DNA of 64,000 nt from Acidimicrobiales bacterium (GTDB lineage: Bacteria > Actinomycetota > Acidimicrobiia > Acidimicrobiales > JBBSGY01): positions 1,165 to 65,164 of the forward strand of contig JBGAQY010000014.1 of the NCBI GenBank assembly GCA_044220495.1, given 5' to 3'. Under the pieces are notes generated by a model. The model saw only the letters and a list, made by a program, of their open reading frames with translations, was not told the origin of the DNA and did not search any database. Made by a program: the position numbers and the translations under genes. Of the stretch, positions 5,294 through 49,253 are shown piece by piece (positions within the stretch are counted from its first letter, which is position 1; every line of letters starts with the position of its first letter).

Positions 5294-5302
5294 GACGACT
5301 GC

Positions 5303-6856
5303 ATGACATCAGTTGACACTGACCTTGGGTCGATTCTCGACATCGACGCAATCGAGAATCCTCTGCTCGATGGGCTAGACGCCGGCCGGCAGGCTCCTCC
5401 GAATGTCTTGATCGTGTTTGGAGCCTCGGGTGATCTGACATTCAGAAAGCTCATGCCCGCTCTTGCGAGTCTCGCCAAGCACCGACAGTTGCCGGGCAGC
5501 TTTGCTGTTGTCGGAGTTGCGCGCACTGAGATGGACGACGAAGAGTTTCGTGAGCGCATGCTCGAAGCCGTGCCAAAGGCTGGCCCCGAGTGGGCTTCGT
5601 TGGTCAAGAGCTTCCGCTATGTACCTGGCGAATACGCCGACGACTCGACATTCGAGAAGTTGGGCGTTGTGCTCGATGAAATCGATGCCGATCGCGGCAC
5701 GGGTGGCAATCGCGTCTACTACTTGGCGACCATCCCTGGCGTGTTCGGTGATGTCATCAAAAAGCTGGGTCGCTTCGGACTAGCCAAGCGTTCCAAGCCC
5801 GGCCCGTTCTGCCGCATTGTCATCGAGAAGCCCTACGGTCGCGACCTCGAGAGCGCGGTCGAACTCGATGAAGCAGTTCACTCGGTTTTCAACGAGTCGC
5901 AGGTCTACCGCATCGACCACTACCTCGGTAAAGAAACTGTGCAAAACGTGATGGCGTTGCGTTTCGCCAACGCGATCTTCGAACCCATTTGGGACCGTCG
6001 TTATGTTGACAGCATCCAAGTAACCGTTGCCGAAGCCGACGGCGTTGGGCACCGCGGTGGGTTCTACGAGACTGCGGGCGCCATGCGCGACATCGTGCAA
6101 AACCACTTGTTGCAAGTACTCGCCATGACACTCATGGAACCGCCAGCAAGCATGGACGCCAACGGAATCCGAGACGAAAAGGTCAAGGTGTTGCGGGCGG
6201 TCGACATTCTCAAGCCCGACGACGTTGAAGCAAACGTCATTCGTGCTCAGTACGCCAAGGGTTGGGTCGATGGACGCGAGGTCCCTGGCTACCGAGAAGA
6301 AGAAGACGTCGACCCCAACAGTCACACCGAAACCTTCACGGCCATGAAGCTCAAAGTCGACAACTGGCGCTGGGCCGGCGTGCCGATTTACGCGCGCACC
6401 GGTAAGCGTTTGCCAAAGCGCGTCACTGAAGTGGCCATGCAGTTCAAGGCCGTACCGCACTCTCCTTTCGAGGCCGGCAACACGCGCAACCTCGGCCCCA
6501 ACGCGTTAGTGCTTCGCATTCAACCCGACGAAGGCATCACTCTGCGTTTCGGAGCGAAGGTGCCGGGTCAGTCGTTCCGCGTTCGCGATGTGTCGATGGA
6601 CTTCTCATATGGCGCGGCGTTCCTTGAAGAAACGCCCGATGCTTATGAGCGCTTGTTGCTCGACGCAATGGTTGGCGACCCGACGTTGTTCATTAGGTCT
6701 GACGAAGTACAGCAAGCGTGGCGGATTGTGGCGCCCATTCAAGATGCGTGGGCCGACCCCAGCTTCCCGCTTGCTCGTTACGAAGCGGGCACGTGGGGGC
6801 CAGAAGAGGCCGACCGTTTGCTGCACCGCGATGGTCGTCAGTGGCGAACTCCATGA
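5303..6856 (+). CDS. zwf: Glucose-6-phosphate 1-dehydrogenase
   Basis: 517 aa. Motifs FGASGDLTFRKL, RIDHYLGKE and EKPYG. Confidence 0.96.
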   Translation: MTSVDTDLGSILDIDAIENPLLDGLDAGRQAPPNVLIVFGASGDLTFRKLMPALASLAKHRQLPGSFAVVGVARTEMDDEEFRERMLEAVPKAGPEWASLVKSFRYVPGEYADDSTFEKLGVVLDEIDADRGTGGNRVYYLATIPGVFGDVIKKLGRFGLAKRSKPGPFCRIVIEKPYGRDLESAVELDEAVHSVFNESQVYRIDHYLGKETVQNVMALRFANAIFEPIWDRRYVDSIQVTVAEADGVGHRGGFYETAGAMRDIVQNHLLQVLAMTLMEPPASMDANGIRDEKVKVLRAVDILKPDDVEANVIRAQYAKGWVDGREVPGYREEEDVDPNSHTETFTAMKLKVDNWRWAGVPIYARTGKRLPKRVTEVAMQFKAVPHSPFEAGNTRNLGPNALVLRIQPDEGITLRFGAKVPGQSFRVRDVSMDFSYGAAFLEETPDAYERLLLDAMVGDPTLFIRSDEVQQAWRIVAPIQDAWADPSFPLARYEAGTWGPEEADRLLHRDGRQWRTP

Positions 6857-16131: not shown

Positions 16132-16653
16132 TCATCCGCCGTAATTCATCCGGGTGTCTTCCATTCTCAATACCAGCGTATCTTCCGGTCTACTGAACCC
16201 GGCTGCGACGACTTCGCCGATAAACAGACTGTGGTCGCCAACGTCCACCGTCTGTCGCAACTCGCAGTCGAGATAGGCGGCTGCCAGGTCGAGAACGGGG
16301 GCTCCCGTGGCCTCTGCGTGGAATTGGAAGCCGTTTAGCGTCGAGTTTGCGGCGTCGTATTCGGCCGGCTTTACAAACTTGCGTACGACGGCTCGCTCTT
16401 CTCTGGGGATGATGTTGAGAGCAAAGGCCTGGTCGTCGTCGATCAGCTGGTGCGTAAGAGCCGTCTTGCTGACGGCGATGCCTAGCTGTTTGGGGGTGCT
16501 CGAAACCTGGGTGGCCCAATTGAGCGACATGGCGTTTTTGCGTTCGCCGGTACCGCTTCCCACTAGGTAGAGGCCAGACGGCATCGACCAAAACACGCGT
16601 CGCCTCAGACGGTCGTAGGCATCATCGGAATCGTCGCCACTAGGTGAGCCCAT
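16132..16653 (-). CDS. Flavin reductase-like (FMN-binding split-barrel) protein
   Basis: 173 aa. PSGLYLVGS...NAMSLNWATQVS is typical of the flavin reductase domain. The start overlaps the pheT stop by 1 nt. Confidence 0.8.
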   Translation of the reverse strand: MGSPSGDDSDDAYDRLRRRVFWSMPSGLYLVGSGTGERKNAMSLNWATQVSSTPKQLGIAVSKTALTHQLIDDDQAFALNIIPREERAVVRKFVKPAEYDAANSTLNGFQFHAEATGAPVLDLAAAYLDCELRQTVDVGDHSLFIGEVVAAGFSRPEDTLVLRMEDTRMNYGG

Positions 16654-23492: not shown

Positions 23493-23766
23493 GCGGCATC
23501 ACTCCTCATTTGAAGGCAACGTTGTTGCCAGATGGAAGGGAGGTGTTTGCACGTGGGCCTCGGGCCGAATGCGGACACCACAAGGAGCGGTGAACGACCT
23601 CGTGGGTATACGAGGTAGATACAGAAACCCGAACGCAGCATCGATCGCGCAATGGATTCGACCTGGTCGGGTGAGGACCGCTGCCCTGCTTTTCCCGTTT
23701 ATTTAGTGGCTTGTATTGCTAGTCGGCTGTTCGGAGACCGAAACAACTCGTCGTAGAGTACACGCT

Positions 23767-24315
23767 ATGAGTTCGATCTGGACCCCAGACGGCGAGCAAC
23801 CCGTGGGTAATCCCGCTGGTCAAGGCAGTGCCACCGACACTGGGGAGTTTCACGAGTCCACAAACGCCGAAGCCCTCACCCCACGAGGTGAAGGCCTCGG
23901 CCAAGGCGGCGGCCCGGCACCACACGGTCAAGGCGCCGGCGCTCAAGGCGTAGGTCCGACAGCCCAGGGCGAAGGCGGCGGCCCTCTAGGCGAAAGTGCC
24001 GGCCCGCAAATGGGCGGTGAGCCAACACCCGAGCAGGCCGAGATCGACCAACTGCGTCGCCAGCTTGCCGACGCACCAGCCGAGATCGTGGTTGCCAACC
24101 ACTGTTTCGGGCTCTTCGAGCTGGCTGCCCTCCACCTTTCCGAGGCTCCACCAAAGCTCGGAGAGGCTCAGCTCGCCATCGACGCCCTCGGTGCGTTGGT
24201 CGAGAACCTCACCGGCCGCCTCGGCGAAGCCGAGCCCCAGCTGCGTGACGGCCTCAACCAACTCCGCCTCGCCTTCGTCCAAATCCGCGCCGCAACCTCC
24301 CAAGACGAGACCTAA
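23767..24315 (+). CDS. DUF1844-like protein (Gly-rich N-terminus, conserved helical C-terminus)
   Basis: The C-terminal ANHCFGLFELAALHL...LAIDALGALVE resembles the DUF1844 proteins found next to infC in actinobacteria (assignment from memory). ATG 23767 is preferred over the track start at 23716. Confidence 0.55.
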   Translation: MSSIWTPDGEQPVGNPAGQGSATDTGEFHESTNAEALTPRGEGLGQGGGPAPHGQGAGAQGVGPTAQGEGGGPLGESAGPQMGGEPTPEQAEIDQLRRQLADAPAEIVVANHCFGLFELAALHLSEAPPKLGEAQLAIDALGALVENLTGRLGEAEPQLRDGLNQLRLAFVQIRAATSQDET

Positions 24316-24470: not shown

Positions 24471-24584
24471 GTGAATGAAGCCTGCAAACACAATGTAGGT
24501 TGGTAAGCGCTTCCCCTCGCACCCAGACGGGTGCTTCTCGGCCGAGTGCGGCCTGACTGTTGCCGCACGAGAAAGACCGAGACA

Positions 24585-25493
24585 ATGCGACGTCCCTTTA
24601 CTCGCTCCGATTTGAGGAACCGAGGCATAACCGAAGCAATGCTGCGACAGGGCTTGCGCACAGGCGAGTGGCATCGAGTCGCACACAACGTGTTCGTGGA
24701 AGGCAGCGAGCCGCCAACGGTGCTCGACCGTGCACTTGGCCTCGTAGTAGTTACCAACGGAGCTGCTAGCCACTCGCTCGCCGGCGTGCTTCACAATCTC
24801 GACGGCGTTGGGCTGAAGCCGCCGTTTGTGACGGTGGAGGCATCGTCGCGATCAAGCCGACACGAACTCCACAGGCGCGACCTCGCGCATGACCTTATCG
24901 TCGAGGTTTCTGGATTCCCGTGTACTAACGGTCTCCGCACGATGCTCGACTTGGCTCAGGTTCTCGACGATGTCTCTTGGGAGCAGGCGCTCGAATCAGC
25001 GCTTCGACAGCGACTGACAACAGTGGCCGAGCTCGAGACAGTCTTACCTGCGCTCGCCGCTTCGAAAACCCCCGGCATCCAAAGGGTTCGCCGCGTGCTG
25101 CGGAAGCGGTGCGCCAACGCTCCACCGACCGAAAGCTTGCTTGAAACTCTCACGGTTCAGCTGATTCGCAGTGAGACTCGCTTGCCTGAACCGGTTCGCC
25201 AAGTGGAGATCTTCAGCCAGCACGACGCTTTCATCGCACGAGTCGACCTGGCCTGGCCCGACGATGGTGTGTTCATCGAGCTTGACGGCCAGCATCACAA
25301 AGACCAGCCCGTCTATGACTCAACACGAGAGACAGCGATCGTCGCCGCAACCAGCTGGCTGCCCGGCCGCTTCACGTGGACCGAAGTCGTCAATTATCCC
25401 AACGCCACGCGACGTCGCCTCGTCGATTTGCTCGACGCGGCTCGCTTCCGTCGCCCACTTTCACCTACGCGATCTGGTCAAAAGTCGGCCTGA
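24585..25493 (+). CDS. AbiEi-N-like wHTH / DUF559 (Vsr-like PD-(D/E)xK endonuclease fold) domain protein
   Basis: N-terminal FTRSDLRNRGITEAMLRQGLRTGEWHRVAHNVF is typical of AbiEi_4-like domains. C-terminal PTESLLETL...PEPVRQVEI......RVDLAWPDDGVFIELDGQHH is typical of DUF559. ATG 24585 is preferred. The last ~10 codons and the stop lie inside repeat copy C. Confidence 0.7.
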   Translation: MRRPFTRSDLRNRGITEAMLRQGLRTGEWHRVAHNVFVEGSEPPTVLDRALGLVVVTNGAASHSLAGVLHNLDGVGLKPPFVTVEASSRSSRHELHRRDLAHDLIVEVSGFPCTNGLRTMLDLAQVLDDVSWEQALESALRQRLTTVAELETVLPALAASKTPGIQRVRRVLRKRCANAPPTESLLETLTVQLIRSETRLPEPVRQVEIFSQHDAFIARVDLAWPDDGVFIELDGQHHKDQPVYDSTRETAIVAATSWLPGRFTWTEVVNYPNATRRRLVDLLDAARFRRPLSPTRSGQKSA

Positions 25494-25605: not shown

Positions 25606-25845
25606 TTAGGTGGGTGTGACGGGGGTGACGGAGTACGCCTCTTCAGTATGTTTGTGGCGCTGGACGACATCGAAGGTGACTGCCGTGCCAACTTCGATCG
25701 TGCGCGATCCGCCGGATATTTGCGTGCAGTGAAAGACATACGACGCGCCGGATTCGTTGGCGACTTTTCCGAGACCAACGTGTTCGTCGAACTCAACAAC
25801 GGTTCCGCTCTCGCCCGCCGATATCAAAGCATTGATTTCGATCAC
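25606..25845 (-). CDS. Cold-shock-domain-like small OB-fold protein
   Basis: 79 aa. GTVVEFDEHVGLGKV...YVFHCTQI...GSRTIEVGTAVTFDV follows the CSD strand pattern but lacks the canonical RNP aromatic residues. GTGA overlap with the hisG stop. Confidence 0.55.
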   Translation of the reverse strand: MIEINALISAGESGTVVEFDEHVGLGKVANESGASYVFHCTQISGGSRTIEVGTAVTFDVVQRHKHTEEAYSVTPVTPT

Positions 25846-26735
25846 GGAACCAGCTTGCGCAACGGCAGCTCCAACAAGTCAGTTGCGCCCGCATCTTTGA
25901 GCGCAGGAATCAACACGTTGATATCTGAAGTTGCGACAACCGTTTCGAGTGCGTAGCCGTCGTCGCCCCACAACTTGGCAACGGTCGGAGATTTCATGGC
26001 GGGCAACAAGTCGATCACTGCCTGCAGGTTGTCAGACGGAACGTTTAGCTTTACGAGCACTTGATTACGCGCCGACAACGCACCTTGCAACAGCGTGTAG
26101 ATCTGCTCCATTGCGTGGCGCTTTTGCGGATCGTTATACGCAGCCTTGCTTGCGATCAGTTCTGTCTTGGAAACCAGCACGGTGTCGAGGATCCGCAAGC
26201 CGGCCGCTCGTAATGCACGTCCTGTCTCAGTGATGTCGACAATTGCGTCGGCGATCTCGGGCACCTTTGCTTCGGTGGCGCCGTATGACAACCTCACGTC
26301 GGCGTCGATGCCGTTGCGTTCGAAGAATCGCTTGGTCAAGCCTGGGAATTCGGTTGACACTCGCACGCCCTGCGGCAGATCAGCGACACTTGTTGCCGAC
26401 GAGTCAGCAGCAACAGCCAAGATCACTTGTACCGGGTTAGCTGTGTTCTTTGAGTACTCGAGTTCGCCGATCGACACGACATCGCACTGGTTCTCTTCGA
26501 TCCAGTCGCGCCCCGTGATGCCGAAGTCAAACATCTCTTCGGCAACGTAGATCGGGATCTCTTGTGGTCGCAGAATGCGTACATCACCAATACGAGGGTC
26601 GTTGATAACAGCTCGATAGTCGACGTTTGAGTTGCGCTTCACACTCAAGTCAGCTGCGTCGAACAATTCGAGCGTTGCGTTTTCGAGCGAGCCTTTCGGC
26701 AACACGAGTCGCAATTCAGGATATGCACTAGCCAT
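25842..26735 (-). CDS. hisG: ATP phosphoribosyltransferase, long form
   Basis: LRLVLPKGSLE, the DITETGRALRAAGL motif, and the C-terminal regulatory domain. ATG 26735 was chosen (297 aa). The track start at 26852 would overlap the upstream gene. Confidence 0.9.
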   Translation of the reverse strand: MASAYPELRLVLPKGSLENATLELFDAADLSVKRNSNVDYRAVINDPRIGDVRILRPQEIPIYVAEEMFDFGITGRDWIEENQCDVVSIGELEYSKNTANPVQVILAVAADSSATSVADLPQGVRVSTEFPGLTKRFFERNGIDADVRLSYGATEAKVPEIADAIVDITETGRALRAAGLRILDTVLVSKTELIASKAAYNDPQKRHAMEQIYTLLQGALSARNQVLVKLNVPSDNLQAVIDLLPAMKSPTVAKLWGDDGYALETVVATSDINVLIPALKDAGATDLLELPLRKLVP

Positions 26736-26784
26736 GGGCGCCGAGCCTAGTAAGTCGCGACGCCCATGGCTGTGGTCACAGCGA

Positions 26785-27918
26785 CTACTTCTCTTGATTG
26801 CTAGATGTGTCGGGCTCGCTCCAAATTGGGTCGACGCCTTTGTAAGCCGCATTGATGAAACGGTCGTCGTAGAGACTCGTCAACTCAGGCAATGTATCGA
26901 TCGCCTTCAACTCATCGACCAACGGCTGCAACTGCTTGCTCCATTCATCGTCACCCAAGAAACCGATCGGCTTGGTTGCCGGTGTGCTCGAACGTACGAG
27001 TTCGCGTTCGGCGTTCCATCGAAAAGTTTCGGTGTCGGCGCTCATTGGGGCTTCAGCAGTTGCACGCTTGACGGCGTAGCTCACAGCCTCGTTCGGATGA
27101 TCAGCCGCATATCGATAACCAGCAAGGTCTGCACGCAAGAAGTCGGTCACTGCGTCGGGATGCTTCTTGATTAGATCTGCGTTGGCGACGAGCACACCAA
27201 ATGACGACGGCACTTGTTGTACGTCGGGGTTGAACGTGCGGAAGTCAATACCTGCCTTCTGCAACTGGAATGGCTCGTTTGACTTGTAGACCGGGCGCGA
27301 CGCAATGCCGTTCTTACCGAGGATCGTTGGGTCATAAGACACTTGCACTTGTTTGAATGAATCTTCCTTCACGCCGGCACGCGCCAACATCAATCGCACG
27401 CTGTATGGAAGTGTTCCGATAACACCCATGGTCGTGCCCTTGAGGTCGGCAAGACTCTTGATATTCGAGTCGCCAGCGACGGCCAGTTCTTCGATCGAGC
27501 CGTGGCCGTAAGTCGCAATGGCTCGGAGGTTGGCGCCTTTTGAAACGGCGACGGCAACTTCGCTTGCTGAGCCGAGCGAAGTAAGGCCAACGCGTCCTGA
27601 CGAAACAGCAGGAACGTTGTCGTTTGTGAACCCTGGCTGCAGCTTTACATCTAGACACACCGCATCGAAGTATCCGCGCTCTTCAGCAGTTACGACATCA
27701 ATGATTGATGCAGCGGCGGAATATCCGTAGCCGGTGAGAAACGTGATCTCGCCGACCGCCTTGTTCGCCGCACAACGCGTTGCGTTCATCGATCTTGGCG
27801 CCGGCGTTAGACCGTTTGCACTCTCGTCTTTCTTGTCGTCGCCGCAGGCCGCCAGCGAGCCTGTCGAGAGCGCAAGCGCAAGCGCGGCTACGGCGAACTT
27901 CTTCGTACTCAATTTCAT
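26785..27918 (-). CDS. ABC transporter substrate-binding lipoprotein, NMT1/THI5-like (SsuA/ThiY/RibY family)
   Basis: Signal peptide with lipobox LAAC. About 350 aa of type-2 periplasmic-binding-protein fold. Last gene of the riboswitch-led operon. Confidence 0.85.
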   Translation of the reverse strand: MKLSTKKFAVAALALALSTGSLAACGDDKKDESANGLTPAPRSMNATRCAANKAVGEITFLTGYGYSAAASIIDVVTAEERGYFDAVCLDVKLQPGFTNDNVPAVSSGRVGLTSLGSASEVAVAVSKGANLRAIATYGHGSIEELAVAGDSNIKSLADLKGTTMGVIGTLPYSVRLMLARAGVKEDSFKQVQVSYDPTILGKNGIASRPVYKSNEPFQLQKAGIDFRTFNPDVQQVPSSFGVLVANADLIKKHPDAVTDFLRADLAGYRYAADHPNEAVSYAVKRATAEAPMSADTETFRWNAERELVRSSTPATKPIGFLGDDEWSKQLQPLVDELKAIDTLPELTSLYDDRFINAAYKGVDPIWSEPDTSSNQEK

Positions 27919-28706
27919 TACTGATTCTCATTTCTTTCTTCACGATTCCAACGAAGGACGCGATTTTCGACAACAGACAACAACAAGGTCAGCGTGATAC
28001 CCAGCACGGTGAGCACAGCAACGCAAGCCCACACCACCGTGGTTTCAAGGTTCTTCTGCGCAGCGATGATCATGTAGCCCAGACCTTCACTAGATCCGCT
28101 CCATTCAGCCACGACAGCACCTATGAGACCGAGGCTGATGCATACACGCGCGGCTGAGAACAGAAACGGCAATGCGTGGGGAACCCGCAACGTGAAAAAG
28201 ATTTCTCGTCGCGACGCGTTCACCGAACGCAACACTTCAAGCGTCGCAGTGTCAATGGAACGAAACCCCGTGAGTAGGTTCACCAAGAACGGCGCAAATG
28301 TAATCACTGCTGCCATCACGATCTTTGGTGCCCAGCCGAAACCCAACCACAGCATTAGAGCTGGAGCGAAGGCAACAACGGGAGTGCACCGCAACGCTAT
28401 CTGCAGCGGTTGTACAGCGCGATCGAAGACGGGCAAGTGCACCATTGCTGCCGCCATGACGCCAGAGACCAAAAGGGCGATCACAAACCCAGCCGCTGCT
28501 TCAGCGACCGTCACCAAGGCTGCATCGAAGTAGACGCTTCCTCTATCAGCGATCTCGTTGAGTATTGCCGACGGTGCCGGAATCACTAGCGGTGCAACAT
28601 CAAACGCGTTAATGGCCAATTCCCACGCAGACAAGACGGCGATGACGGTAACGAGCCCGGGAACAATGGCCGAAGTTGCGCGCCGCAAGGCGGTCGCGTC
28701 ACTCAT
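27918..28706 (-). CDS. ABC transporter permease (BPD_transp_1, SsuC/TauC-like)
   Basis: 262 aa with six hydrophobic segments. Overlaps both neighbouring genes. Confidence 0.85.
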   Translation of the reverse strand: MSDATALRRATSAIVPGLVTVIAVLSAWELAINAFDVAPLVIPAPSAILNEIADRGSVYFDAALVTVAEAAAGFVIALLVSGVMAAAMVHLPVFDRAVQPLQIALRCTPVVAFAPALMLWLGFGWAPKIVMAAVITFAPFLVNLLTGFRSIDTATLEVLRSVNASRREIFFTLRVPHALPFLFSAARVCISLGLIGAVVAEWSGSSEGLGYMIIAAQKNLETTVVWACVAVLTVLGITLTLLLSVVENRVLRWNREERNENQ

Positions 28707-29488
28707 GACGGCACCACCAACAAGTTGCGCAGACGCTCGACGACTGGTTGCGCATCAGCAGCGACGCCGATGCCACGCGTATTGAACACTCCCCCGACGC
28801 GACCTGGTTCGTCATGCAAAACGAGCACATCATCAGCAAGCAACACGGCCTCGGTGATGTCGTGCGTAACGAAGATGATGGTGTGCTTCCCGACGCCGCG
28901 CAGCGAGTCGATGTGCGCACGCATCTCATCACGCGTTATTTCATCGAGCGCCGAGAACGGCTCATCTAGAAGCAGCACTGGCGCTTGGGTAGCGATCACT
29001 CGAGCTAGAGCAACGCGTTGGCGCATCCCGCCCGACAGTTGATGGGGCCACGCATCTGCGACCCGTGAAAGACCGACGGCTGCCAGCGCGTCGGCGCTCG
29101 ACATCGACGGACGTTGTGCCGACCGGTTGATGCGGCCTAACAAAGCGACGTTGTCAATTACCGACTTCCACGGCAACAGCGCGGGCGCTTGGGGCATGAA
29201 CCCGAACGTCTTGCGCGCACGCGCTTCAAGCGGATCTAGCTCGTTGACAGTGATGTGTCCGTCGTCAGTGGCCAGTAAGCCACCAACCAATCGCAGCAGT
29301 GTGGACTTACCAACGCCGCTGCGTCCGACGATGCCGAGAACATCGCCCTCGTTGACTTGAAACGAAACGTCGGTGAGCACCTTCGTTGCAGCGGAGCCGG
29401 AGCGAAACGATTTGGCGACGTGATGAGCGACAACGATCGAATGAGCCGGTGAGGCGTTGGGTGAAGTGTCGATTGTCTGCTGCGTCAT
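28703..29488 (-). CDS. ABC transporter ATP-binding protein
   Basis: Walker A GRSGVGKST, signature LSGGMRQR, Walker B LLLDEP. Confidence 0.92.
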   Translation of the reverse strand: MTQQTIDTSPNASPAHSIVVAHHVAKSFRSGSAATKVLTDVSFQVNEGDVLGIVGRSGVGKSTLLRLVGGLLATDDGHITVNELDPLEARARKTFGFMPQAPALLPWKSVIDNVALLGRINRSAQRPSMSSADALAAVGLSRVADAWPHQLSGGMRQRVALARVIATQAPVLLLDEPFSALDEITRDEMRAHIDSLRGVGKHTIIFVTHDITEAVLLADDVLVLHDEPGRVGGVFNTRGIGVAADAQPVVERLRNLLVVPS

Positions 29489-29568
29489 GTTGGCCCTTGC
29501 AACGAGGCGCAGCCGACGGCAAACAAGCCGTCAGATCACGCGAGTGAACGCGCGACGGCAAGTGCAGT

Positions 29569-29706
29569 CGTCTTCTCTCATCCGGACTATGACCGTCGGC
29601 TCCTTAATTACAAAGGATCAACCCCGCACAAATAGCACGGGGGTCGCGGGCTCTAAGACTTGCGTCTGTAACCGCCGGTGGGGAGTTTCACCCCGCCCCG
29701 AAGACG
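29569..29706 (-). promoter_or_regulatory. FMN riboswitch (RFN element)
   Basis: Minus-strand RNA: cgucuucggggcggggugaaacuccccaccggcgguu...agagcccgcgaccc...ggagccgacggucauaguccggaugagagaagacg. The P1 stem is cgucuuc/gaagacg, and all conserved RFN blocks are present. It ends 80 nt upstream of the ATPase ATG. Confidence 0.92.
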
Positions 29707-29766
29707 TTGATTCTTGAATTGTGGATGTGAGGCTACCAGCCGCCGGACAGACACAACACCTGCGGC

Positions 29767-30849
29767 TCAGGAGCCATGAACCCACTCGAGCCAGTTGCCA
29801 TGCTGACCAATACGCGCAAGCACTTGGGCCTCAGAGCCGTGAGCCGTGATGTGTTGAATGCCCAACAAACTGGCGTCAGGTCGATCTGGCTCGTCAGCGA
29901 ACGCAGCGACCATCGACGGCCACTCGTATGAGATCCACCAAAGCGGGCGCGTGCGGCCGATGTCTTCGATGAGCAACGTGAGTTCACCACGCAATTCGGG
30001 GCTCATCCACGCCATCATCCAACAGTTGTAAAGCACGAGTTCAAGGTCGTAAGGAACCTTGGCCACTTCAGCTTTGAGCGTTGTTAGAACGTCACCACGA
30101 ACAACCTCAGGCCACTCGCGACGGGCAAGCTCAACGGCAGCAGTCAAACGCTGGTCGCGCCCAATGTCGCCAACCCAAATACACGCGCGCAACCAAAGCA
30201 CATCGTCTTCATCGTTGATGTCAGGCGGATCAATGTCGATGCCAATGCGGTAATCGACCTCAGAAATAGAGCTTTGGTATGGCGGGGCCGGGCCGCGCAA
30301 GGTGGTGTGACAACGCACGTTGGAACCCGGCAAGCCAACGACAGAATCGCCGCCGTAGTCATATCGAAAGCGGTCGAACAGCAAACCGAGACCTGCGCTC
30401 GAACCCATCTCGATCAAACCAAGAGGTCGACTGACTTTGCGCGTCACAACCATGAGCGCCGGCACGAGACCGATGCAGCGATTGACTTCGTTGGTTTGAA
30501 TGTTGCGCTTGCGCATGACCTGCACGATCTCATCGTGAAACTCATCGCAGAAATCTTTGAACTGCACTGGTGCTTCTTGCACTGAGGTCTTTGCCGTCGG
30601 TGCTTCGTAAATACGCGCCAGCTTGTGTTGCGCGCCCTGCAGAATCAAGAAGTGCACTGCCGCGAAAAGCAACACTGGCCGCAATTTCTCAGCTGGCAGG
30701 TCTTCGTATAGGTCGAGCAGTTGCGCGTCTTGGGCGATAATGCCCGACAGATGCGTATAGATCGAATCGCTCGAACCGTTCTCGTGCCACTCGCGAAACG
30801 CGCGTTGTAATGACTTGCGATCGGCGACGGGCGGATCGTGGTCACTCAT
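29767..30849 (-). CDS. DUF2332-like protein
   Basis: 360 aa. LRPVLLFAAVHFLIL and IEMGSSAGLGLLFDRFRYDYG match my recollection of DUF2332. ATGA overlap with the rpe stop. Confidence 0.6.
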   Translation of the reverse strand: MSDHDPPVADRKSLQRAFREWHENGSSDSIYTHLSGIIAQDAQLLDLYEDLPAEKLRPVLLFAAVHFLILQGAQHKLARIYEAPTAKTSVQEAPVQFKDFCDEFHDEIVQVMRKRNIQTNEVNRCIGLVPALMVVTRKVSRPLGLIEMGSSAGLGLLFDRFRYDYGGDSVVGLPGSNVRCHTTLRGPAPPYQSSISEVDYRIGIDIDPPDINDEDDVLWLRACIWVGDIGRDQRLTAAVELARREWPEVVRGDVLTTLKAEVAKVPYDLELVLYNCWMMAWMSPELRGELTLLIEDIGRTRPLWWISYEWPSMVAAFADEPDRPDASLLGIQHITAHGSEAQVLARIGQHGNWLEWVHGS

Positions 30850-31538
30850 GCAGACTGTGCCTCTTCTCTAGCTTTCGTAAATGCAGTGATGGCTTCGCGC
30901 AATTGTTCCGCAGCAGCCAAAGGGTCTGACTGAGCGAAGATAGCGTTACCGGCCACAAAAGTGTCGGCTCCGTTTTGCGCTGCAACCGGACCTGTTTGCA
31001 CATCGATCCCGCCGTCGACTTCGATGTGCAAACCAGGATTCACGGTGTCAGCCAGCGCGCGACTTGCGCGCAATTTGGGCATTACTTCTTCCATGAACTT
31101 TTGTCCGCCAAAACCAGGCACGACTGTCATCACCAGCAGCATGTCGATGTGCGGAATGAACTCTTCGAACGCTTCGAGCGGTGTGTCGGGATTTACGCCC
31201 AAACCCACATCAAGCTGCAGCGCCCGCATTTCGGCAATCAACGCTGCGGTGTTGCCGACCTCAAGATGAATCGAGCAACTATCGGCACCAGCCTTCTTGA
31301 ACGCCTCGAGATACGCGCCAGGGTCGCTAATCATTAGATGGCAATCGAAGTAGAGGTCAGTCTGGGCGCGCAGCGACTTCACAATTGGAGGACCGAGCGT
31401 GATGTTGGGCACGAAGTGACCGTCCATCACGTCGACGTGCAGCAAGTCTGATTGTGGTGCGACACGGGCTACTTCGGCCGCCAAGTTGGCGAAATCAGCC
31501 GAAAGAATCGAAGGTGCAATGCGGGCCACGAGCAGCAC
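30846..31538 (-). CDS. rpe: Ribulose-phosphate 3-epimerase
   Basis: IAPSILSADF, HVDVMDGHFVPN, VMTVVPGFGGQKF. Start trimmed to GTG 31538 (or 31529), downstream of the fmt stop at 31546. Confidence 0.92.
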   Translation of the reverse strand: MLLVARIAPSILSADFANLAAEVARVAPQSDLLHVDVMDGHFVPNITLGPPIVKSLRAQTDLYFDCHLMISDPGAYLEAFKKAGADSCSIHLEVGNTAALIAEMRALQLDVGLGVNPDTPLEAFEEFIPHIDMLLVMTVVPGFGGQKFMEEVMPKLRASRALADTVNPGLHIEVDGGIDVQTGPVAAQNGADTFVAGNAIFAQSDPLAAAEQLREAITAFTKAREEAQSA

Positions 31539-32957: not shown

Positions 32958-34655
32958 CTAGATGCGAGGTGGGTCAATCTCTATGCGCAACCGAGCTGGA
33001 CGCTTGACTCCGCTGAACGCATTGGCAAGCACGTCAGCAGTGGCTGCTTTCAGTAGATACGAACCCTCACGAGGTTCGAGCACGTCAAAGTCTCCGCTCA
33101 GGGCGGCGACGAAATCACTCGCTCCCCCGCCTTCGACAATGGCCAACCGACTAAAGGGCGGCCACTGCAACTCAGCCCGGCGTTCAGCCTCAATCACCGA
33201 CACGCGAGTTGGATCAGCGTTCTCTGCTGCCGTAATCGCTTCGTGCTTGGGCTGCCTCGTCTGCACCACTATCAATCCACCAGAACGGCGCCCGCCGACA
33301 AGTTTTGACGCGCGTGCCAACAAGATCAGCGCGTCTTCCGTTGCTCGGAATCTTGGCGCCAACAACTCTTGATCAAAGTCGAGGAACACCACAGCGTCAG
33401 CGCGTCCGATGCGGTGTAACACCGCTTCGGTTCCGACGAGTACCGACGCGTCAGGCAGGGTGTCGCTCTCACCTGTGACCTCGCCAACCGGCCGCAGAGC
33501 AAGCGACTCAAGCTCTTCGCGCACACGACTAACGCCGGCGCGCAGTTGCTTGAACACCGTCGACCCACACGTCCCACACACCACCGGCTGACGAGCAGCA
33601 CAGCGCTTGCAAACGAGGTCGTTGCGGTCGTCGTCTTTTGATGAGTTGGTCAGCGACCCTGAACACTTCTCGCAACGGGCGATCTCGTCGCATGCTTTAC
33701 AGACCAGCAACTGTGCTCTGCCCTTGCGGTTCAAAATGCAGACAACACGCTTAGTCGAGCGCAACAACTCGACAACGCGCGGTGAATACAGACCTGAGTG
33801 CGGATCGCTCTTGCGAAGATCAACGACGTGCAGCGCCGCCCAACCTTCGCGTTCGACAGCACGATCGGGCTCAATCAGCTTGCGTTCGTGCAGCAACTCA
33901 ACGCGGGGCGCAAACGAAGACAACACACACGGAATCTCGCGCCGTCGGGCTCGTTCAACCACTACGTCGATTGCACTCCACGTCGGTGATGCTTCCGACT
34001 GCAGAGCTTCGTCGTGCGCGTCAAGAACCAGCACCGAGTTGAGATCAACCATTGGCGCCCACGCGGAGGCGCGCGTGCCGACAACACTCACACCACCGCC
34101 AGCCGCCAGCGCCCACTGATCGGGATACAAGGCAACTCGGCGCCCTGCTTCGCGCATGCGCCGAGCCAGCTTCTCTGCACCTCTTTGAGATGGGCTCACG
34201 ATCAGAGCTGGCCCGCGATCGTCAGCAGCGAGTGCAAGCGGCAATGGGTCAGTTGCTGGTGGCCACCGCAGCACAGTTGTTGAACTGCCCGAGAACCATT
34301 CACTGTCGACTGCCGGCGCATGAGTGTCACGACCAAGCGAACGAACATTCCTCAGCGGCGACGCCGTCTGCAGAAAAAACGAACGCTTACCGGCCCAACG
34401 CCATGCAGCCCACGATGCGAGCTCAATGATTTCTTCGTTGGGCCCGCAACCACTCCACTTGGTTAGTTCAAGCAGGCGCACGCCCTCGGGGGGCGTTGCG
34501 TCGTCGTCAATCACCCATCCCCGAATGCGCCGGTTATGCAACATGGCGCGAACGACAGAGCCAACGCGCACGTCCGCGTCGAACTTCTCGGGAATTAGGT
34601 AATCGAACTCAGCCTCGATGCCAGAGACATCGGGAACTACGCGGGCGACGCGCAG
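32958..34655 (-). CDS. priA: Primosomal protein N' (PriA, actinobacterial type with degenerate helicase motifs)
   Basis: Cys-rich zinc region CKACD..CEKC..CKRC..CGTCG. The track ORF starts at GTG 34571. The conserved N-terminus VARVVPDVSGIEAEFDYLIPEKF is encoded in frame upstream, up to the metK stop. The start is therefore probably CTG 34655. Confidence 0.85.
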   Translation of the reverse strand: MRVARVVPDVSGIEAEFDYLIPEKFDADVRVGSVVRAMLHNRRIRGWVIDDDATPPEGVRLLELTKWSGCGPNEEIIELASWAAWRWAGKRSFFLQTASPLRNVRSLGRDTHAPAVDSEWFSGSSTTVLRWPPATDPLPLALAADDRGPALIVSPSQRGAEKLARRMREAGRRVALYPDQWALAAGGGVSVVGTRASAWAPMVDLNSVLVLDAHDEALQSEASPTWSAIDVVVERARRREIPCVLSSFAPRVELLHERKLIEPDRAVEREGWAALHVVDLRKSDPHSGLYSPRVVELLRSTKRVVCILNRKGRAQLLVCKACDEIARCEKCSGSLTNSSKDDDRNDLVCKRCAARQPVVCGTCGSTVFKQLRAGVSRVREELESLALRPVGEVTGESDTLPDASVLVGTEAVLHRIGRADAVVFLDFDQELLAPRFRATEDALILLARASKLVGGRRSGGLIVVQTRQPKHEAITAAENADPTRVSVIEAERRAELQWPPFSRLAIVEGGGASDFVAALSGDFDVLEPREGSYLLKAATADVLANAFSGVKRPARLRIEIDPPRI

Positions 34656-47612: not shown

Positions 47613-49253
47613 CTAAAGCCCGTGGTCTAGTCCACGGCCGTCGCCTCGGGGTGGCGGAAGTTGTGGCGGCCCGCTTGGCTCTCGCACATCGACTGTGCGG
47701 GTAAGCGCCGTATTCAGGTCTGACCCGAAGGGCAGCACTTCTATCCTTGAGTCGAGTGACGTTGCGCGAGAGCCCAAGATTGCCGAACGAGCCTGCACGA
47801 TGGTGTCGATCTCGTGCTGCCCCAACTGGCCGTTATCAAAGGTCGCATCGCCCAATACCTCGCACGCCGTAATGGCCATCGCAAGCGCACGCTCACGATT
47901 CTCAAGAGGCACGCCCATCAACGTTTCAGGAATGTCGAGGTGGCTGATCCCGATGAGTGACTTCAACACTCGTGGACCTCGATCGTCTTGCCGACGGCCC
48001 ATGAATTCGAATAGCGGAACGCTCTTCAGATGATCTTCAGCATTCTGAACAGTTGCACTCAGACGCGCCCAAAGCCGCAGGACATCGTCGCTGATAACCA
48101 ATGGATCACGACGAGCCACAACTCCTGACCGCTCGCCACCCGATCGCGGGTTAGTCGGCGTGGCCGCGCGAACCACGCCGCGCTGGCTCAAGGCAGCGTT
48201 CATGGCCGTCATGCCATCGCCGACTGTCTGATCGTGCTCCCACTGCGCAACCTGGTCGTGTTCATACTCGGTGATCATGCGGATCAACTGACCTTGTGCA
48301 TCCCATGACCTGACGCCAGCATCGATGTCGCTTGCGCCTGCCACCGGAAGCACCGGCGCGAGACGGTCGAGACGGGTTCGATATGGCAACTCGTAAAACG
48401 TTCTGAAGAACTCCGGTCGTGCTGGGGGTGTCTGGCCTTGGCCGTCCCACCCTTCGATTCCGTTCCATCGCGTCAGCGCAAAGTCTTGATTTACGTAACG
48501 CTCGTCCATTACGCCTTCTCGATAAACCACGAGGCGAACGCGACCGGCGTCGATGTCGCCGCCGATATACGCGATCTCACGCGCCTCTCGACCAATGACC
48601 CCCCAATCGCCAGTTGACTGGGCGGTTTCAAGGCCAACGTAACGCCGTGCTTCTGCGTCGTAACGCACCGGCAAGCCGACGTGGAAGTTGCCCAAGCGAT
48701 CTACGCCGGCGCGCACACGAACGCCGGCGCGTCCAGCCGGAAGAATGGGAGGCATGTTCGGACCCAATGGGCCGTGCATGTCGCGCAACACAGACTCTGC
48801 GGCGTAACGCCTCAACAGCGCATCGGAGTAAACAACGCCATAAAGATCACAGTCGTCTGGGTGAAGTAGACCGACTTGGCCTTCGATCGGACGGCCCGTC
48901 ACCTGGTTCAAAAACGGTGTACGGACGGTAATGGCGTCGATATCTTCGGCAGAGAATCGCCAAACGTCGTCTGGGGTGCCGATGCGCGGATCGTTCGGAG
49001 AGACACCATTTTGATCGGCGAAAAAGTAGAAGCCTTTGTCTTCGCCCGGAACGCCGTAACTTTCAGGATTGCGAACAACAAGGCCAGCAAAAATAATGCC
49101 GCTCTTGTGCTGGACAGCGGCGACCAACGCGCCTTGCGACATACCGGGCCGAAACGGAATTGTCGGCGTGCCAAGCGTTCGGTTGTGGGGGTCATCGTCG
49201 AACGGACTCATCATGCCCCTGAGGGCAACCGGTCCGCGTTTATTGCTAGCCAT
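47613..49253 (-). CDS. Hypothetical protein, 546 aa, no recognisable family
   Basis: Long ORF with coding-like composition, co-oriented between nusB and pyrR. No TM segment or signal peptide. No motif I can name. Confidence 0.6.
   Translation of the reverse strand: MASNKRGPVALRGMMSPFDDDPHNRTLGTPTIPFRPGMSQGALVAAVQHKSGIIFAGLVVRNPESYGVPGEDKGFYFFADQNGVSPNDPRIGTPDDVWRFSAEDIDAITVRTPFLNQVTGRPIEGQVGLLHPDDCDLYGVVYSDALLRRYAAESVLRDMHGPLGPNMPPILPAGRAGVRVRAGVDRLGNFHVGLPVRYDAEARRYVGLETAQSTGDWGVIGREAREIAYIGGDIDAGRVRLVVYREGVMDERYVNQDFALTRWNGIEGWDGQGQTPPARPEFFRTFYELPYRTRLDRLAPVLPVAGASDIDAGVRSWDAQGQLIRMITEYEHDQVAQWEHDQTVGDGMTAMNAALSQRGVVRAATPTNPRSGGERSGVVARRDPLVISDDVLRLWARLSATVQNAEDHLKSVPLFEFMGRRQDDRGPRVLKSLIGISHLDIPETLMGVPLENRERALAMAITACEVLGDATFDNGQLGQHEIDTIVQARSAILGSRATSLDSRIEVLPFGSDLNTALTRTVDVREPSGPPQLPPPRGDGRGLDHGL

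Follow-up and report, generated by a model that had tools for sequence, protein, structure and literature searches.

A probable riboflavin importer under an FMN riboswitch at a riboflavin biosynthesis site in an Acidimicrobiales bacterium

Which substrate does an ATP-binding cassette (ABC) transporter carry if its protein families suggest sulfonate, nitrate or taurine and its transcript begins with a flavin mononucleotide (FMN) riboswitch? This question is raised by a three-gene operon in a stretch of 64,000 nucleotides from an Acidimicrobiales bacterium (assembly GCA_044220495.1, contig JBGAQY010000014.1, positions 1,165 to 65,164), which we call the window. The operon lies on the minus strand and encodes an ATP-binding subunit (ATPase) and a permease, together with a substrate-binding protein (SBP). 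A previous reading of the sequence alone (the sequence-only reading) combined the FMN riboswitch with the NMT1/ThiY type of the ABC importer and proposed a candidate for RibXY-like riboflavin uptake. This proposal is supported by synteny, by the riboflavin biosynthesis (rib) genes found at the same site in relatives, and by related clades that carry either the FMN riboswitch (RFN element) or ribE. We consider the operon a probable FMN-regulated riboflavin ABC importer of the RibXY/RibXYZ type and put the probability of this at about 0.78. The value refers to the functional assignment only and not to the mechanism of the switch.

The whole window was compared with Rfam 15 using cmscan. Upstream of the operon, the FMN riboswitch family RF00050 scored 111.2 bits, where its gathering score is 66.2 (E 4.9e-25). 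The alignment spans model positions 1-138 of 138, i.e., the aptamer is complete. The sequence-only reading had placed a complete RFN element at 29569-29706 of the minus strand and had suggested cmscan with RF00050 as a check; the score is far above the threshold, and the bounds are now 29566-29709. No other Rfam family exceeded its gathering score in the window; in particular, no thiamin pyrophosphate (TPP) riboswitch was found there. The distance between the aptamer end and the ATG of the ATPase gene (29488) is 77 nt.

The three transporter open reading frames (ORFs) overlap one another by 1 to 4 nt. They had been described as an ATPase, a permease and an NMT1/THI5-like lipoprotein; the coordinates given were exact, and the Pfam families match. 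The N-terminus of the SBP, MKLSTKKFAVAALALALSTGSLAAC (...SLAAC), is a lipoprotein signal with a lipobox that includes Cys24, a residue at least 90% conserved among the homologues. The closest homologues of the SBP are about 46% identical to it and come from metagenome-assembled genomes (MAGs) of Acidimicrobiia. We compared an AlphaFold2 model of the SBP (pLDDT 89.6) with the PDB. The top structure was ThiY (3ix1; E 6e-21, TM-score 0.85 on the target, 19% identity), and the other top neighbours included the thiamin-bound SBP 4nmy and THI5, all ahead of TauA and SsuA.

Every NCBIfam equivalog match of the three proteins (sulfonate, taurine and SaoP models) fell below the cut-off. The scores were 168 against 395 for the ATPase, 84 against 342 and 70 against 347 for the permease, and 49.1 against 163.5 (SsuA_fam) and 29.1 against 304 (taurine) for the SBP. 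Homologues of the SBP are named "NitT/TauT family" by JGI. It had been expected that by family alone the transporter would be annotated as a sulfonate/nitrate/taurine system, and the sub-threshold matches together with the JGI name bear this out. SsuABC and TauABC do belong to the same broad ABC subfamily and provide the default automated annotation. They differ from the window system in that the equivalog scores are far below the cut-offs, that their structures rank below ThiY and THI5, and that the riboswitch and the ribE and rib-site context point to flavins.

The most direct evidence of this context comes from the genomic site of the operon. We followed the contigs of close rpe homologues and inspected the interval from rpe to hisG or infC. 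Two metagenome contigs, L086 and L087, have the order RFN - ATPase - permease - NMT1 SBP - folE - hisG between rpe and hisG, with a full FMN riboswitch (117 bits, cmscan) located exactly between rpe and the ATPase gene. Their SBPs are 45-49% identical to the window SBP, and the three proteins cluster in 95 of 100 neighbour-joining bootstraps. Other relatives hold rib genes at this site: DUF2332-ribD-ribE-ribA (GTP cyclohydrolase II)-hisG in L088, DUF2332-ribE-ribB-ribH in L090, and ribE in the contig of P0106. L089 has folE-hisG alone in the interval. The cmscan search found no FMN riboswitch at the rib site of L088. Thus the riboswitch-transporter unit is kept in a small clade, at a site where sister lineages hold rib genes. 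The window was said to contain no rib biosynthesis gene. Indeed, a Pfam scan of 50 ORFs across the window revealed none, and tblastn with ribD, ribE, ribA, ribB and ribH from relatives gave no match in the window. Since relatives hold riboflavin biosynthesis genes at the rpe/DUF2332-hisG locus, the importer has most likely taken over the riboflavin supply there. A comparable picture emerges for other Actinobacteria from dataset S5 of PMC4418817: Amycolatopsis is listed with "ribH, ribA, ribE, rpe", and Beutenbergia cavernae, where an FMN riboswitch is present, with "ribY, ribX, hisG, hisE".

The same site allows another explanation: the riboswitch could be left over from a lost rib operon and stand by accident before an unrelated transporter, either ThiY-like, i.e., for hydroxymethylpyrimidine (HMP), FAMP (N-formyl-4-amino-5-aminomethyl-2-methylpyrimidine) or thiamin, or for sulfonate or taurine. 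This would agree with the position at the ancestral rib-operon site, with ThiY and a thiamin SBP as the top solved structures, and with SsuA and taurine as the top NCBIfam models. However, the aptamer is intact and of full length (111 bits), and its pairing with the operon is kept in L086 and L087 despite SBPs just 45% identical to that of the window. The pairing is found again in a second clade, described below, whose genomic sites are unrelated. L088, which has rib genes at the site, has no RFN element there to leave behind. In addition, a TPP riboswitch is absent, and the SsuA and taurine scores are far from their cut-offs (49 vs 163.5 and 29 vs 304). A leftover riboswitch therefore seems very improbable to us.

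The wider SBP family was scanned with one genome per species, and relatives with the motif [VGA]YKSNEPx[QTA]L were selected (the YKSNEP family). They are encoded at 355 genome loci. Gene context was counted in the best 80 of the 355 loci, which are mostly from Acidimicrobiia and also include Subtercola, Kineococcus and a few others. Most of the 80 loci retain the ATPase-permease-SBP order. The FMN aptamer is present in eight of them, each time just 5' of the ATPase gene and at genomic sites without rpe, DUF2332 or hisG nearby. Together with the aptamer-free locus L035, the eight loci form a single clade with 100/100 support. In L035 (positions ~5300-5430) the aptamer is missing and a cyclophilin-like gene ends just 5' of the ATPase gene, which suggests that this locus lost the riboswitch recently.

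A second link to flavins is ribE (riboflavin synthase, PF00677). It is located directly 5' of the transporter, without a riboswitch, in 14 of the 80 loci (L002, L005-L013, L041, L051, L054 and L058), and also in L082 (5727-6302) and L085 (5719-6360). The gene precedes that of the ATPase in 11 loci and that of the permease in the three loci where no ATPase match was found (L041, L051, L054). In L082 ribE and the transporter are 5 nt apart, and in L085 they overlap. The ribE-linked loci include the clade nearest to the window SBP by identity. Within the 80 loci ribD, ribA, ribB and ribH never adjoin the transporter on the same strand; a single ribH on the opposite strand is present in L029. No riboswitch family, including TPP, reached the Rfam gathering score in 30 related loci that lack RFN. 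Three independent contexts thus tie the SBP family to flavin metabolism: the RFN elements of two separate clades, the neighbouring ribE, and the position at the rib site. This genomic context suggests that the SBP may bind flavins and that the system may transport riboflavin.

The pairing of ribE with the transporter could be a plain "supply" operon, or it could hint at import of dimethyl-ribityl-lumazine with one-step salvage. The importer of the window might carry a precursor or a relative of riboflavin, with 6,7-dimethyl-8-ribityllumazine, the substrate of riboflavin synthase, as the candidate and lumichrome or a flavin analogue as further possibilities; feedback by FMN would still be sensible, because the cargo becomes FMN. 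It fits such a cargo that no rib gene but ribE is attached to the transporter on the same strand (14 of 80 loci, immediately 5'), and that the SBP subfamily is distinct from the validated RibY, with a conserved Cys pair and an N-terminal extension of its own. On the other hand, there is no ribE in the 64-kb window, so that with a lumazine cargo the genome would have to carry ribE at another place. In Streptomyces, ribE adjoins ribM, a riboflavin carrier, and so a true riboflavin carrier next to ribE has a precedent. Moreover, the validated member of the family carries riboflavin (PMC4418817). For these reasons we regard a precursor cargo as improbable. Slightly less probable still is a broader scenario, in which the actinobacterial YKSNEP subfamily, with its conserved Cys pair and dedicated ATPase, was recruited to flavin metabolism independently of canonical RibY, at least its ribE-linked members import 6,7-dimethyl-8-ribityllumazine for salvage by one enzyme, and the window copy is a riboswitch-controlled derivative. 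To our knowledge, a transporter serving this kind of salvage has not been described.

Riboflavin itself remains the favoured cargo, and known riboflavin importers provide the comparison. The study of FMN regulons in Chloroflexi led to the prediction of RibXY, a homologue of ThiXYZ without an ATPase (PMC3766115). In 2015 the RibXY operon of Chloroflexus aurantiacus was shown to complement an Escherichia coli ribB mutant (PMC4418817). The sequence-only reading was right about the ThiY/NMT1-like type of the binding protein but referred to RibXY as a predicted system, although it had already been validated by this complementation. PMC4418817 cites Rodionova et al. 2015 both for the binding of flavins by RibY and for "RibZ", an ATPase of some Chloroflexi. 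Riboswitch-linked homologues in Actinobacteria, Chloroflexi and Thermobaculum are counted as RibXY (PMC4418817).

To locate authentic RibY, we searched metagenome contigs for exact matches to the published cloning primer. The recovered Chloroflexus loci (including L092) have an FMN riboswitch (102.6 bits) followed by the permease and SBP genes, and the recovered SBP shares a 90%-identity cluster with ABY34053.1 ("Riboflavin-binding protein RibY, C. aurantiacus J-10-fl" in UniRef). The C. aurantiacus system (Caur_0816-0817; RibY is ABY34053.1), whose validated cargo is riboflavin (PMC4418817), resembles the window operon in the FMN riboswitch directly 5', the BPD_transp_1 permease and the NMT1/ThiY-fold SBP lipoprotein. 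The window permease is 29% identical to the permease of the Chloroflexus ribXY locus over 238 aa (E 6e-35). The gene content differs in the ATPase: the window has ATPase-permease-SBP with a dedicated ATPase, whereas L092 has RFN-permease-SBP with no intervening ATPase. The window ATPase would be the counterpart of the one that a single study, in the citation mentioned above, named RibZ in some Chloroflexi.

Several observations weigh against riboflavin import by the window operon. The window SBP and RibY (ABY34053.1) are only 28% identical over 229 alignment columns (46 bits), and this alignment covers query residues 77-284, or 55% of the window SBP. The score of the window SBP with ThiY is 44 bits. 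Because the distances to RibY and to ThiY are similar, specificity is not transferable by homology. The majority of the 80 loci, 58, have neither RFN nor ribE. The branch of Subtercola and Kineococcus is without a flavin link, and the one Subtercola locus that we detailed has no flavin-related neighbour. Finally, ribE linkage alone would also fit import of the ribE substrate, dimethyl-ribityl-lumazine.

Judged by these alignments, the window SBP represents an NMT1 subfamily of its own, at about the same distance from RibY as from ThiY. RibY is nearer to ThiY (71 bits with 3ix1) than to the window SBP. According to hhalign, the homology probability of the window SBP and RibY is 99.2% at 23% identity. 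In the joint alignment the motif N-E-P-x-Q-L is common to the YKSNEP family and authentic RibY but not to HMP-type SBPs, and ThiY has YINHEY where the window family has YKSNEP. Unlike RibY, the window SBP has an extra N-terminal segment. This extension, "RCxxN...G.IT", contains a Cys pair (C48 and C87 in the window SBP) that is invariant across the YKSNEP family; both the pair and the extension are absent from canonical RibY and from HMP-type SBPs. The two cysteines probably form a disulfide and mark the subfamily. The N-E-P-x-Q-L and Cys motifs are leads, not specificity tests.

PMC4418817 started from a rule by which orthologues share more than 38% identity across 80% or more of the sequence, and relaxed it where an FMN riboswitch or synteny was present. 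The window SBP falls short of the starting rule. It would be counted as RibXY under the relaxed definition, i.e., as a homologue with an FMN riboswitch. The riboswitch is located immediately 5' of the operon, the SBP is NMT1/ThiY-like (COG0715), and the permease is of the COG0600/BPD_transp_1 type, with a gene that overlaps the SBP gene.

Actinobacterial ribXY systems, which share the phylum and the FMN riboswitch with the window operon, are known from Beutenbergia cavernae (Bcav_2051) and Arcanobacterium haemolyticum (Arch_0861) (PMC4418817, dataset S5). The Beutenbergia transporter is listed with hisG and hisE, and the window operon likewise adjoins hisG; as far as the listing goes, its content is ribY and ribX without an ATPase. 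Both species are absent from the best 80 loci of the YKSNEP subfamily, and their copies may be in the canonical RibY branch.

ThiXYZ, which serves HMP and FAMP salvage, has the same three-component make-up, and its ThiY (3ix1) is the top solved-structure match by both sequence and fold, at 19% identity. ThiXYZ operons are reported to occur with TPP riboswitches. In contrast, the window has an FMN riboswitch alone and no TPP riboswitch, and the immediate neighbours of the transporter are rpe, DUF2332 and hisG. One more group for comparison is RfuABCD of spirochaetes, also a riboflavin ABC importer. Its binding protein RfuA belongs to an SBP family other than NMT1. In Spirochaeta smaragdinae the Rfu system likewise has an FMN riboswitch (PMC4418817).

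If riboflavin is the cargo, the lipoprotein SBP of the NMT1/ThiY fold would capture the flavin outside the cell, and the permease with its dedicated ATPase would bring it into the cell. Riboflavin kinase would convert the imported riboflavin to FMN. Plentiful FMN would then bind the leader aptamer and turn the operon off. We infer the substrate and this direction of regulation (OFF with FMN) from the observed aptamer, gene families, fold, synteny and family-wide links to flavin genes. The coordinates of all these features are listed in Table 1.

Table 1. Coordinates of the riboswitch, its expression platform, the transporter genes and the genes that bound the site
Feature	Position in window	Strand	Basis or remark
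FMN riboswitch aptamer (RFN element)	29566..29709	-	RF00050, 111.2 bits, full model 1-138
Expression platform, 77 nt	29489..29565	-	sequence
Platform segment B, GCCGUCGCG	29559-29551	-	fold
Platform segment C, CUGACGGC	29534-29527	-	fold
U-rich tract UUGUUUG	29526-29520	-	sequence
Platform segment D, GCCGUCGGC	29520-29512	-	fold
Shine-Dalgarno (SD)-like AAGGG	29498-29494	-	sequence
C:D hairpin, CUGACGGC-UUGUUU-GCCGUCGG, -13.9 kcal/mol	29513..29534	-	fold
Candidate intrinsic terminator: B:C hairpin 29559-29527, -17.3 kcal/mol, then UUGUUUG	29520..29559	-	nascent-transcript folds
ABC transporter ATP-binding subunit, 261 aa	28703..29488	-	PF00005 ABC_tran, 110 bits
ABC permease, 262 aa, RibX-like	27918..28706	-	PF00528 BPD_transp_1, 103 bits
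NMT1/ThiY-fold SBP lipoprotein, 377 aa, RibY-like, divergent subfamily	26785..27918	-	PF09084 NMT1, 110 bits
rpe (ribulose-phosphate 3-epimerase), upstream site boundary	30846..31538	-	TIGR01163, 231.7 bits; 230-aa form is P0105
DUF2332 gene, upstream neighbour of the operon	29767..30849	-	PF10094, 289 bits; synteny in L088 and L090
hisG (ATP phosphoribosyltransferase), downstream site boundary	25842..26735	-	PF01634 and PF08029; also a neighbour in L086 and L087

The mechanism of the switch was considered separately. The leader was folded with the aptamer helix P1 enforced (closed) or blocked (open), both at full length and as a nascent transcript cut at UUGUUUG. The sequence-only reading had suggested translational control, since it saw the C:D hairpin and no U-tract. 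The hairpin does exist, but its UUGUUU may be the tail of an upstream hairpin and not a loop. In full-length folds the C:D hairpin forms with P1 closed and with P1 open and by itself does not separate the states. In the nascent transcript with P1 enforced, segments B and C form a composite hairpin immediately 5' of the U-rich tract, an arrangement that resembles a terminator. If P1 is blocked, the partner of arm B becomes CCGACGG of the aptamer (29599-29593), and the structure resembles an antiterminator. What had been read as the loop UUGUUU is thus plausibly the tail of a terminator. In the SD sequence, the first four bases are predicted to be unpaired in both states (0.9-1.0 with P1 closed, 0.73-0.76 with P1 blocked), and an SD open in both states is a poor fit to an OFF switch acting on translation. 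The argument for translational control from a missing U-tract is not supported by these folds, and we rejected SD sequestration as the main model for the window. Transcription attenuation is the mechanism we favour, tentatively and at somewhat less than even odds.

There are points against attenuation. The terminator model is a single-sequence one, and the U-tract is short and interrupted. A scan for consensus promoters and terminators found nothing. The fold z-scores are unremarkable (-1.5 for the whole leader, -0.8 for the platform), and single-sequence folding gave no clear switch. The leaders of L086 and L087 share one layout, i.e., the aptamer, a GC-rich hairpin, a U/G-rich tail and a second hairpin over the SD, and the GC-rich hairpin has compensatory changes between the two. 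However, both states contain this first hairpin, and its U-tail is weak. We also looked to these two leaders for covariation in support of the terminator, but their platforms are too unlike that of the window to align.

Translational regulation, with FMN binding leading to occlusion of the ribosome-binding site and with the C:D hairpin in the platform, concerns the mechanism only and is compatible with the riboflavin-importer assignment. No canonical terminator was detected in the window leader, and a weak stem CUGCG/CGCAG brackets its SD and AUG. The other RFN clade plainly uses 9-bp SD-sequestering hairpins (GUGCGCUCC/GGAGCGCAC). In L087 the SD is paired, and the openness of the AUG is 0.83 with P1 blocked against 0.22 with P1 closed. 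Nevertheless, the unpaired SD bases of the window run counter to the requirements of an OFF switch, and both states contain the C:D hairpin. We consider this mechanism unlikely for the window, although still a serious candidate. Rho-dependent or other mechanisms account for the remainder.

Two further observations concern the leader. In the unconstrained minimum-energy fold the P5 strand CCUUUGUAA (29616-29608) pairs with the SD region UUGCAAGGG (29503-29495) by nine pairs including G-U. This pairing is probably due to chance; if real, it would mask the SD when no ligand is bound, which is contrary to the regulation expected of an importer. We do not claim a promoter spotted by eye (TTGTGT at 29756-29751, a 15-nt spacer, TAGCCT at 29735-29730), as the spacer is short and the scan did not support it.

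The chromosomal setting of the operon is as follows. The window has a G+C content of 58%. Its conserved backbone reads pyrR-pyrC-carAB ... pyrF-gmk-coaBC-metK-(priA)-def-fmt-rpe-DUF2332, continues with [RFN-ATPase-permease-SBP]-hisG, and ends with ... infC-rplT-trmH-sensor kinase-pheST. The best homologues of rpe are 70-74% identical, and the named ones are from Acidimicrobiales or Acidimicrobiaceae MAGs. The ATG of hisG is 49 nt past the stop codon of the SBP gene, and no obvious terminator is seen by eye in this gap (26736-26784). Because of the short gap without an obvious terminator, and because the Beutenbergia unit also comes with hisG and hisE, read-through into hisG may occur. Thus hisG is possibly co-transcribed with the transporter operon, and histidine biosynthesis may partly be read through from the FMN-controlled promoter.

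The gene folE (GTP cyclohydrolase I, PF01227) is found at 12617-13210 in L086, 12661-13254 in L087 and 7699-8295 in L089. Its place between the SBP gene (or rpe) and hisG is the slot that ribA (GTP cyclohydrolase II) has in L088. In L086 and L087 folE abuts the SBP gene and so may be under the FMN riboswitch. The DUF2332 gene is kept between rpe and either the rib genes or the riboswitch-transporter unit (2064-3143 in L088, 7666-8712 in L090, and the window gene), and it overlaps ribD in L088. A functional tie of the uncharacterised DUF2332 family to riboflavin metabolism is possible. A flavin reductase-like gene (16132-16653, minus strand; PF01613, 108 bits) lies just 3' of pheT, at a distance of about 10 kb from the operon with the riboswitch.

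Four long ORFs of the window have no Pfam match at E 1e-5: 32958-34571 and 47613-49253 on the minus strand, and 23716-24315 and 24531-25493 on the plus strand. By synteny the first of them is at the position of priA (PriA_3primeBD in L086, L087, L089 and L090). For the two plus-strand ORFs, which lie in the interval from hisG to infC, the relatives examined show no counterpart.

ThiY-like ABC riboflavin importers controlled by FMN riboswitches have been known since 2013-2015, including those in Actinobacteria and beside hisG. The window operon opens no new mechanism, and the gain is in annotation. Three points are mildly new. One is the Acidimicrobiia subfamily itself, given its large distance from canonical RibY. 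Another is the apparently clear replacement of synthesis by uptake at a conserved site. The third is the ribE-only linkage of sister clades, because of which salvage of the lumazine precursor by some members of the family keeps a small probability. A transporter labelled "nitrate/sulfonate/taurine" by pipelines is most likely a vitamin B2 importer, and this annotation correction extends to the family at 355 genome loci, mostly of uncultured Acidimicrobiia among the 80 examined. The supply of riboflavin appears to have switched from synthesis to uptake at one conserved site, which bears on the prediction of B-vitamin auxotrophy and cross-feeding in environmental Actinomycetota.

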